A stretch of 14,819 nt of DNA from Escherichia coli (GCF_003334355.1 NZ_QOWP01000051.1); one strand, 5' to 3'. Shown: positions 8,846 to 10,323, counted from the first letter of the stretch. Program-made: numbers and translations. Notes: generated from the sequence alone by a model not told the origin.

Positions 8846-8946
8846 AAGCAGGATACCCCGTTTAACCGTGTGGATTGTGTCTTGCGACGATGGGCACTAA
8901 ATGTTAAAAGGTGCCCCTCAACAAAAAAGACACACAGGGGAAAGGC

Positions 8947-10323
8947 GTGAAAAACGCGTCAACCGTATCGGAAGATACTGCGTCGAATCAAGAGCCGACG
9001 CTTCATCGCGGATTACATAACCGTCATATTCAACTGATTGCGTTGGGTGGCGCAATTGGTACTGGTCTGTTTCTTGGCATTGGCCCGGCGATTCAGATGG
9101 CGGGTCCGGCTGTATTGCTGGGCTACGGCGTCGCCGGGATCATCGCTTTCCTGATTATGCGCCAGCTTGGCGAAATGGTGGTTGAGGAGCCGGTATCCGG
9201 TTCATTTGCCCACTTTGCCTATAAATACTGGGGACCGTTTGCGGGCTTCCTCTCTGGCTGGAACTACTGGGTAATGTTCGTGCTGGTGGGAATGGCAGAG
9301 CTGACCGCTGCGGGCATCTATATGCAGTACTGGTTCCCGGATGTTCCAACGTGGATTTGGGCTGCCGCCTTCTTTATTATCATCAACGCCGTTAACCTGG
9401 TGAACGTGCGCTTATATGGCGAAACCGAGTTCTGGTTTGCGCTGATTAAAGTGCTGGCGATCATCGGTATGATCGGCTTTGGCCTGTGGCTGCTGTTTTC
9501 TGGTCACGGCGGCGAGAAAGCCAGTATCGACAACCTCTGGCGCTACGGTGGTTTCTTCGCCACCGGCTGGAATGGGCTGATTTTGTCGCTGGCGGTAATT
9601 ATGTTCTCCTTCGGCGGTCTGGAGCTGATTGGGATTACTGCCGCTGAAGCGCGCGATCCGGAAAAAAGCATTCCAAAAGCGGTAAATCAGGTGGTGTATC
9701 GCATCCTGCTGTTTTACATCGGTTCACTGGTGGTTTTACTGGCGCTCTATCCGTGGGTGGAAGTGAAATCCAACAGTAGCCCGTTTGTGATGATTTTCCA
9801 TAATCTCGACAGCAACGTGGTAGCTTCTGCGCTGAACTTCGTCATTCTGGTAGCATCGCTGTCAGTGTATAACAGCGGGGTTTACTCTAACAGCCGCATG
9901 CTGTTTGGCCTTTCTGTGCAGGGTAATGCGCCGAAGTTTTTGACTCGCGTCAGCCGTCGCGGTGTGCCGATTAACTCGCTGATGCTTTCCGGAGCGATCA
10001 CTTCGCTGGTGGTGTTAATCAACTATCTGCTGCCGCAAAAAGCGTTTGGTCTGCTGATGGCGCTGGTGGTAGCAACGCTGCTGTTGAACTGGATTATGAT
10101 CTGTCTGGCGCATCTGCGTTTTCGTGCAGCGATGCGACGTCAGGGGCGTGAAACACAGTTTAAGGCGCTGCTTTATCCGTTCGGCAACTATCTTTGCATC
10201 GCCTTCCTCGGCATGATTTTGCTGCTGATGTGCACGATGGATGATATGCGCTTGTCAGCGATCCTGCTGCCGGTGTGGATTGTATTCCTGTTTGTGGCAT
10301 TTAAAACGCTGCGTCGGAAATAA
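8947..10323 (+). CDS. pheP: Phenylalanine-specific APC-family permease PheP
   Basis: The track ORF starts at ATG 8911. I place the start at GTG 8947-8949 (…KNASTVSEDTASNQEPTLHRGL), giving 458 aa, because AGGGGAAAGG lies immediately upstream and this N-terminus matches PheP as I recall it. Multi-TM amino-acid permease. Confidence 0.88.
   Translation: MKNASTVSEDTASNQEPTLHRGLHNRHIQLIALGGAIGTGLFLGIGPAIQMAGPAVLLGYGVAGIIAFLIMRQLGEMVVEEPVSGSFAHFAYKYWGPFAGFLSGWNYWVMFVLVGMAELTAAGIYMQYWFPDVPTWIWAAAFFIIINAVNLVNVRLYGETEFWFALIKVLAIIGMIGFGLWLLFSGHGGEKASIDNLWRYGGFFATGWNGLILSLAVIMFSFGGLELIGITAAEARDPEKSIPKAVNQVVYRILLFYIGSLVVLLALYPWVEVKSNSSPFVMIFHNLDSNVVASALNFVILVASLSVYNSGVYSNSRMLFGLSVQGNAPKFLTRVSRRGVPINSLMLSGAITSLVVLINYLLPQKAFGLLMALVVATLLLNWIMICLAHLRFRAAMRRQGRETQFKALLYPFGNYLCIAFLGMILLLMCTMDDMRLSAILLPVWIVFLFVAFKTLRRK

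Follow-up and report, generated by a model that had tools for sequence, protein, structure and literature searches.

The cusA–pheP spacer of Escherichia coli as the probable pheP promoter and leader region, and likely read-through of cusCFBA transcripts into pheP

In Escherichia coli, the gene of the phenylalanine transporter PheP, a membrane permease, recurs as an unexplained ‘CusR-associated’ gene in copper and silver transcriptomes. It lies on the same strand as the cusCFBA operon and directly follows the copper-pump gene cusA, the last of that operon, which raises the questions of what the short spacer between the two genes contains, where pheP translation begins and whether transcripts launched from the cusC promoter (PcusC) can pass from cusA into pheP. 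These questions were addressed on a stretch of 14,819 nucleotides from E. coli (GCF_003334355.1 NZ_QOWP01000051.1), referred to as the window, with positions counted from its first letter; the features discussed are collected in Table 1.

The open reading frames of the window fit cusS, cusR, cusC, cusF, cusB, cusA and pheP, followed by ybdG on the opposite strand, and identify it as the cusRS–cusCFBA–pheP locus of E. coli K-12, to which bases 8600–9200 are 100% identical. The same bases were matched over at least 80% of their length in 5402 of 5426 complete E. coli genomes, all of which are annotated with cusA and then pheP. RefSeq annotation of K-12 ER2796 places the end of cusA at window position 8845 and the start of pheP at 8947 (locus coordinate + 7099), which agrees with the length of 101 bp given for the spacer in a preliminary description of this DNA, and the spacing annotated in RefSeq for O157:H7 and for a third lineage is the same as in K-12.

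For comparison, 80 loci coding for close PheP relatives were collected across the Enterobacteriaceae, with one genome per species. Within this set cusA is found upstream of pheP only in Escherichia, and in an Enterobacter locus the upstream position is occupied by the gene of a TonB-dependent siderophore receptor. As the upstream gene differs, the loci share no relation farther upstream than about −65, counted from the start codon, and a sharp phylogenetic footprint extends from −65 onward. The cusA-proximal part of the spacer is specific to Escherichia and contains the 3’ remnant of a hairpin, GATACCCCGTTT; the hairpin is intact in a divergent genome of the E. coli group (L005), where it reads GCCGGGGAGGGATACCCGGTTT, and its 11-nt 5’ arm is absent in K-12 and O157.

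Table 1. Features of the cusA–pheP junction and of the elements upstream and downstream of it, in window coordinates.
Feature	Position	Strand	Basis or remark
CusR box ATGACAATTTTGTCAT, cusR–cusC intergenic region	2500–2515	+	One match, 0 mismatches; presumed source of Cu/Ag-induced transcripts reaching pheP
cusA CDS (RND permease), last gene of cusCFBA	5702–8845	+	ORF and RefSeq annotation of identical K-12 sequence
cusA–pheP spacer, 101 bp, without intrinsic terminator	8846–8946	+	Sequence, scans, composition (G 27, C 22)
Escherichia-specific cusA-proximal part of spacer, with 3’ hairpin remnant	8846–8866	+	Locus comparison
Long imperfect hairpin (MFE), predicted only for read-through RNA; Escherichia-specific	8866–8939	+	Folding; arms not conserved outside Escherichia
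Probable pheP promoter, −35 hexamer TTGCGA	8882–8887	+	TTGnnn at 17 bp (73 loci) or 18 bp (7 loci), 80/80 loci
Probable pheP promoter, extended −10 element TG-t-TAAAAG (TG 8902–8903, hexamer 8905–8910)	8902–8910	+	TGTTAAAAG/C in 76/80 loci
CCCCU...AGGGG pairing of the preliminary description	8914–8940	+	CCCCT 8914–8918, AGGGG 8936–8940, 17-nt loop
pheP 5’ leader, 30 nt; transcription start probably ~8917, 7 nt past the −10 hexamer	8917–8946	+	Published construct end and geometry
C/A-rich leader stretch CAACAAAAAAGACACACA, candidate GcvB R1 site	8919–8936	+	Composition; published R1 prediction
Shine-Dalgarno sequence AGGGG	8936–8940	+	Anti-SD −6.5 kcal/mol, spacing 5 nt; ACAGGGG at least 90% conserved
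Conserved hairpin GGCGUG-AAAAA-CGCGUC, 6 bp, 5-nt loop, GUG in 5’ arm	8944–8960	+	RNAalifold and conservation
pheP CDS, GTG start, 458 aa	8947–10323	+	RefSeq and comparison of loci
Strong bidirectional intrinsic terminator between convergent pheP and ybdG; 11-bp stem with 7 G-C pairs, then TTTTTTT	10355–10381	both	Whole-window scan

Probable promoter and leader, and start codon of pheP

The spacer between cusA and pheP is in all probability a promoter and leader region and not a terminator region. A TTGnnn element, a spacer of 17 or 18 bp, a TG dinucleotide, one further base and TAAAA(G/C) are present in all 80 loci, though the upstream genes differ between them, and CTTGC is at least 90% conserved while the sequence farther upstream is not. 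Measured against the σ70 consensus, the −35 hexamer TTGCGA matches at four of six positions, the spacer is 17 bp, the TG of the extended −10 element is present and the hexamer TAAAAG again matches at four of six positions, with the A at position 2 retained and G in place of T at position 6. A strict promoter scan reported none because it demands T at this last position. A σ32 promoter (CTTGA...CCCC) was considered and rejected: such elements are expected to be ~13–17 nt apart, and CTTGCGA is separated from CCCC by 26 nt. As a separate observation, a SELEX table in the literature places pheP under PgrR.

The position of the transcription start can be approached through a published reporter. The insert of pXG-10sf-pheP begins with CTCAACAAAAA, and 30 bp of it are designated ‘intergenic’ (PMC11878033 supplement); in an earlier paper the same laboratory states that EcoCyc was its source of transcription starts in building pXG-10sf constructs (PMC9299463). 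By the same practice the 5’ end of the pheP construct would be the EcoCyc transcription start, so that transcription of pheP probably begins near 8917, a position deduced from cloning design with which the geometry of the −10 element agrees. The supplements of Kim 2012, a dataset of transcription start sites and operons, do not mention pheP. Given a +1 near 8917, the sequence GTGCCCCT, conserved in 56 of the 80 loci, would occupy the discriminator and start region; it is followed in the 3’ direction by a variable A-rich stretch, by ACAGGGG with the Shine-Dalgarno (SD) sequence, and then by G(A/G)C GTG AAA (A/G)AC GCG TCA.

Translation of pheP starts at the GTG at 8947, which is the existing RefSeq annotation and hence not new. 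The sequence AGGGGAAAGG at 8936–8945, proposed in the preliminary description as the ribosome-binding site of this GTG (8947–8949), indeed serves it, with an anti-SD pairing that is predicted at −6.5 kcal/mol and spaced 5 nt (5–6 nt) from it, within the 5–9 nt typical of an SD-led start. The start is conserved among orthologues, being GTG in 77 and TTG in two of 79 aligned enterobacterial loci, and no conserved coding potential lies upstream of it: an in-frame stop occurs 6 nt before the start in 29 of the 79 loci, and in the remaining ones the frame ahead of the start varies. In addition, the published pheP::gfp translational fusion, which starts at window 8917 and carries the 30-bp leader and 40 codons, gave measurable GFP fluorescence (PMC11878033), showing that initiation does not need position 8911. 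The likely start at 8947 given earlier is therefore upheld by annotation, by GTG or TTG in 79 of 79 loci and by a fusion that works without 8911.

The codon at 8911 had been described as ATG, which is an error, as 8911–8913 reads GTG and the nearest in-frame ATG, at 8890, meets a TAA at 8905. This GTG lies upstream of the probable transcription start near 8917 and is no start codon. That it might act as a true alternative start on transcripts arriving from cusA, yielding PheP with 12 additional N-terminal residues, is extremely improbable. Such RNA would contain the codon, from which the frame runs without a stop as far as 8947 in both E. coli and E. albertii, but the codon has no SD sequence (its best predicted anti-SD pairing reaches −2.4 kcal/mol and is spaced 15 nt from it), falls in the stem of the hairpin predicted for read-through RNA and is not the RefSeq start. 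In most species, moreover, the extension is interrupted or not in frame; the equivalent GTG is absent in Citrobacter, and elsewhere among the relatives’ loci it lies in another frame or runs into a stop.

The leader that precedes GTG 8947 is also of interest with respect to GcvB. GcvB represses pheP::gfp modestly, to 58–79% of the control, and causes a significant decrease of pheP mRNA by qRT-PCR in M9, an mRNA effect that needs RNase E’s C-terminal domain; the pairing between GcvB R1 and pheP predicted by IntaRNA, at −11.34 kcal/mol, is among the weakest in that study (PMC11878033, 2025). In a duplex calculation (duplexfold), for which the GcvB sequence had been confirmed in E. coli genomes, 79% of shuffled targets were at least as good as pheP, and consequently no mapped GcvB site is claimed.

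Termination signals and transcription from the cusC promoter

A terminator scan found no + strand terminator-like site in 8400–9300, in agreement with the earlier statement that no strong terminator separates cusA from pheP. Applied to the whole window, the same method picks out the terminator at 10355–10381 after pheP, which serves as a positive control and is the first strong + strand terminator downstream of PcusC. The stems available in the spacer do not have the form of an intrinsic terminator, since CCCCT/AGGGG encloses a loop of 17 nt and GGGCACU/GGUGCCC one of 11 nt, and they are followed by GAAAGGCG and CUCAACAAAA in place of a U tract; the spacer sequence likewise bears out the remark that it has no T tract. 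No Rfam match was obtained in 8700–9100 at E-values up to 1. Terminator-like matches occur upstream of the pheP promoter in 18 of the 80 loci, among which the identity and orientation of the upstream gene vary; the idea that E. coli is exceptional in missing an upstream terminator was dropped, as the 80 loci give no clean contrast.

Rho loading sites, as modelled by rut-site predictors, have a C>G character, being C-rich and G-poor. The spacer holds more G (27) than C (22) and is not C-rich, and therefore has no rut-like region. The C/G ratio is 0.59–1.00 in every 78-nt segment that overlaps the spacer, compared with a median of 0.91 across the window, so that by this composition heuristic, the sole measure used for Rho, the spacer lacks the C-rich, G-poor and poorly structured ~70–80 nt of a rut site; its RNA is predicted to be structured.

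Upstream, the one CusR box of the window lies ahead of cusC and matches without mismatch the consensus, which we take to be that of Yamamoto and Ishihama (2005). No other CusR box was found anywhere in the window, including the vicinity of pheP, at up to three mismatches.

Published RNA-seq data connect pheP with this promoter. In constitutive (gain-of-function) cusS mutants, log2 fold changes of 2.4–3.5 were reported for pheP, against 2.3–4.0 for cusA and 2.1–4.2 for cusB, in five strains grown either with silver or without it (PMC11510482). In this study and in a second one (PMC10920338), both on silver-adapted cusS mutants, pheP is among the few genes that are up together with cusS, cusR, cusC, cusF, cusB and cusA. 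In a supplementary RNA-seq table for silver-treated wild type, cusF, cusB, cusA and pheP are consecutive in the list. The papers that reported this co-induction did not read it as read-through, and literature searches on pheP with cus genes, CusR or read-through yielded only the two studies of cusS mutants.

cusCFBA and pheP are thus on the same strand, have no terminator between them and are co-regulated in published data. Because the spacer has neither a terminator nor a Rho loading region, transcripts from PcusC would continue through the pheP promoter and gene, and the co-induction would be due to one continuous transcript. Read-through of copper- and silver-induced cusCFBA transcripts into pheP had been called conceivable; the lack of a terminator and of a C>G region, the sole CusR box at PcusC and the published co-induction together make it likely.

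An unlikely alternative places the end of PcusC transcription between cusA and pheP, brought about by Rho on the untranslated 101-nt gap or by the imperfect hairpins, and attributes the co-induction of pheP to its own promoter, acted on by CusR, by HprR or by an indirect effect of stress. Such induction could draw on a promoter that is autonomous and conserved, but nothing resembling a CusR box lies near pheP even at three mismatches, and in five strains under two conditions the fold changes of pheP closely follow those of cusA and cusB; pheP is also the next gene downstream of cusA on the same strand. The 2019 ‘Copper’ iModulon, made up of copA, cueO, cusCFBA and cusRS and not including pheP (PMC6892915), points the other way. 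As to termination itself, the spacer RNA has some predicted structure (z = −1.95), yet no hairpin is followed by a U tract; and Rho, judged here from composition, could act on the gap or inside pheP, against which stands a C/G ratio of at most 1.0 across the spacer.

The preferred reading, with a probability of roughly 0.78, combines the spacer as pheP promoter and leader, the start at GTG 8947 and read-through from PcusC to 10355–10381. According to it, pheP would be transcribed from its own σ70 extended −10 promoter, with a start near 8917, and translated from GTG 8947, served by AGGGG. The CusR-activated cusC promoter would launch further transcripts through cusCFBA, which would meet no stop for RNA polymerase in the spacer and cross the pheP promoter and gene as far as 10355–10381, and pheP mRNA would rise under copper or silver induction. 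The interpretation offered in the preliminary description, on both start and read-through, is thereby supported and its observations stand in part, the codon at 8911 having been misread; what it missed is pheP’s own conserved promoter and leader within the spacer.

RNA structure around the Shine-Dalgarno sequence and start codon

The weak hairpin of CCCCT and AGGGG noted earlier does exist as a possible pairing with a 17-nt loop, but its standing as a functional element is unsupported, a 5-bp stem around such a loop being no more than chance would provide. With the native +1 probably near 8917, only RNA begun upstream of about 8914 could form the pairing, which would confine it to read-through RNA and keep it out of the native pheP mRNA. 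A role for it, be it as a weak terminator or as a conserved regulator that sequesters the SD sequence of pheP, is very unlikely. The two arms are highly conserved and pair in 94% of cells, but they are separately explained, as promoter discriminator and start region and as SD sequence, and among 68 distinct sequences pair 2 is broken in 13 and pair 3 in five without compensation. RNAalifold does not predict the stem, and a covariation analysis found no double compensatory changes, with a shuffle control that was not significant. With CCCC included in the RNA, opening the SD and start is predicted to cost about 10–11 kcal/mol instead of 6.7; most of the 5’ arm, however, would lie outside the native mRNA, and no U tract follows the stem.

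In read-through RNA the predicted minimum free energy structure is the long imperfect hairpin of Table 1, with an inner stem of GGGCACU (8892–8898) and GGUGCCC (8910–8916) and an outer stem of GUGUCUU (8877–8883) and AAGACAC (8927–8933). The spacer RNA folds with −35.1 kcal/mol, marginally better than its shuffles (z = −1.95, nine of 200 shuffles being as good). For RNA that begins at 8917, opening the SD and start (8936–8949) is predicted to cost 6.7 kcal/mol, and for RNAs that begin in cusA 9.4–9.9 kcal/mol, so that translation may be somewhat weaker from read-through RNA.

A different predicted helix encloses the start codon itself. The hairpin at 8944–8960 is the only consensus helix returned by RNAalifold, at −7.56 kcal/mol (about −7.2 kcal/mol for the K-12 sequence), and 99.5% of cells are paired across the 68 distinct sequences. 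Four of its six pairs show one-sided changes that keep the pairing (G-U/A-U 26/42, U-G/U-A 61/7, C-G/U-G and G-C/G-U); double changes number zero and the shuffle control for covariation was not significant. Two of the six pairs involve G-U wobbles in the most frequent type of sequence, which fits an RNA structure of the sense strand better than a palindrome in the DNA.

The coding sequence within the hairpin is also unusually constant. The third position of pheP codon 4 is G in all 80 loci (GCG in 73, ACG in seven), codon 5 is TCA in 75 of 80, and third-position entropy over codons 2–5 is 0–0.40 bits, the synonymous sites being almost invariant; by comparison, codons for Ala, Gly and Thr within the RGLxNRHIQLIALGG... 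block, which is invariant, have 0.7–2.0 bits, most of them above 1. The start hairpin is a new, minor item, and this pattern of conservation, together with the near-universal GUG, suggests selection for limited initiation.

A more tentative proposal, and on balance a rather doubtful one, is that pheP translation is throttled by the GUG-containing hairpin under nucleotide-level selection, and that in Escherichia the read-through RNA would additionally sequester the SD sequence through CCCCU/AGGGG and the 8866–8939 hairpin. If so, read-through would lift pheP mRNA several-fold and PheP protein much less, a form of translational insulation that would replace a terminator; alternatively, metal stress would truly raise phenylalanine uptake.

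Implications and comparison with known systems

Read-through from cusA is the simplest explanation for the recurrence of pheP in copper and silver transcriptomes and likely accounts for its published but unexplained co-induction, in which case no new regulatory link is needed for pheP in the copper and silver regulon. The point bears on strain engineering, since phenylalanine-consuming therapeutic strains and strains for aromatic amino-acid production make use of pheP, whose expression from the native locus may increase on exposure to copper or silver. The start-codon hairpin, if functional, would provide a small and testable case in which the throttled translation of a membrane permease is conserved.

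The pheP gene of the window is that of K-12 (b0576), described in RefSeq and EcoCyc as monocistronic with a GTG start: the sequence is identical, the CDS occupies 8947–10323 from its GTG, and the 30-nt leader matches that of published work, with no difference from K-12 pheP. Among amino-acid transporter mRNAs targeted by GcvB (aroP, dppA, oppA), pheP is alike in its C/A-rich leader just 5’ of the SD sequence and in being modestly repressed; it differs in that its repression is weak and its site is a candidate. The hairpin at 8944–8960 resembles known initiation-throttling hairpins that enclose a start codon in having GUG in its 5’ arm, in its conservation across genera and in its low synonymous variation, whereas the pheP case is known from sequence conservation, for which a DNA- or codon-level cause is possible.

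The cusA–pheP junction as a whole is an ordinary instance of a known phenomenon and changes no major concept. It shares with systems in which an operon reads through into a same-strand gene with its own promoter the common strand, the missing terminator and rut site, the co-induction and a next strong terminator that lies past the downstream gene. It differs from them in that read-through is here deduced from sequence and published co-induction, and in that the juxtaposition of cusA and pheP is limited to Escherichia.

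Start region of the pheP promoter

The discriminator and start region of the pheP promoter, GTGCCCCT, is the same in 56 of the 80 loci encoding close PheP relatives (at the counterpart positions in L005 to L083), and this conservation exceeds the usual need of a start region. GTGCCCCT might serve as a site for a regulator, or it might be a G+C-rich discriminator of the kind involved in stringent control. In a genomic SELEX table, pheP appears as a binding target of PgrR (also known as YcjZ) (PMC5934670), and PgrR is a possible regulator of the promoter region.

Further downstream, a conserved 6-bp hairpin surrounds the GUG start of pheP. 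Across about 80 enterobacterial species, the synonymous third positions of codons 2–5 are near-invariant, unlike those of equivalent codons deeper in the gene, which are free to vary.

Features of pheP and its flanks
Feature	Window position	Strand	Remark
Discriminator/start region	8911-8918		pheP promoter
Start-codon hairpin	8944-8960		columns 40-57 of alignment A1
Bidirectional terminator	10355-10381	both	perfect 11-bp; between convergent pheP and ybdG

The cusA-pheP junction in other genomes

In a search of the junction (window 8600-9200) against complete E. coli genomes, 4 of the 5413 matches are on plasmids and the rest are chromosomal. In E. coli BLK9, an engineered reduced genome (NZ_CP014641.1), the match starts at query base 250, corresponding to window position 8849, and a tyrosine recombinase/integrase gene adjoins pheP; the start of the match is therefore an engineered deletion endpoint at the cusA stop.

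The 7.8-kb contig PYVH01000101.1 (L004) is labelled 'Marinobacter sp. B9-2', but within the stretches compared with the window, PheP and the 110 bases upstream are identical (100% for PheP) and CusA is 99.8% identical. This contig almost certainly comes from E. coli DNA that contaminated the Marinobacter assembly.

Hairpins after pheP and cusA

The terminator downstream of pheP has a seven-T run after the stem on the plus strand, whereas the minus-strand tail, ACATCGTTTT, is weaker.

Directly after the cusA stop, a divergent genome of the E. coli group (L005, positions 2385-2440) carries 11 additional bases relative to window 8846-8866, and with these bases a hairpin, GCCGGGGAGGGATACCCGG, is complete and has TTT after it. 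In K-12 and O157 the 3' arm of this hairpin is all that is left, and the sequence after the cusA stop may have decayed from a hairpin that once acted as an insulator. Enterobacter and Lelliottia loci contain a similar hairpin, GGGGCAGGGATGCCCC, after a TonB-dependent receptor gene upstream of pheP.
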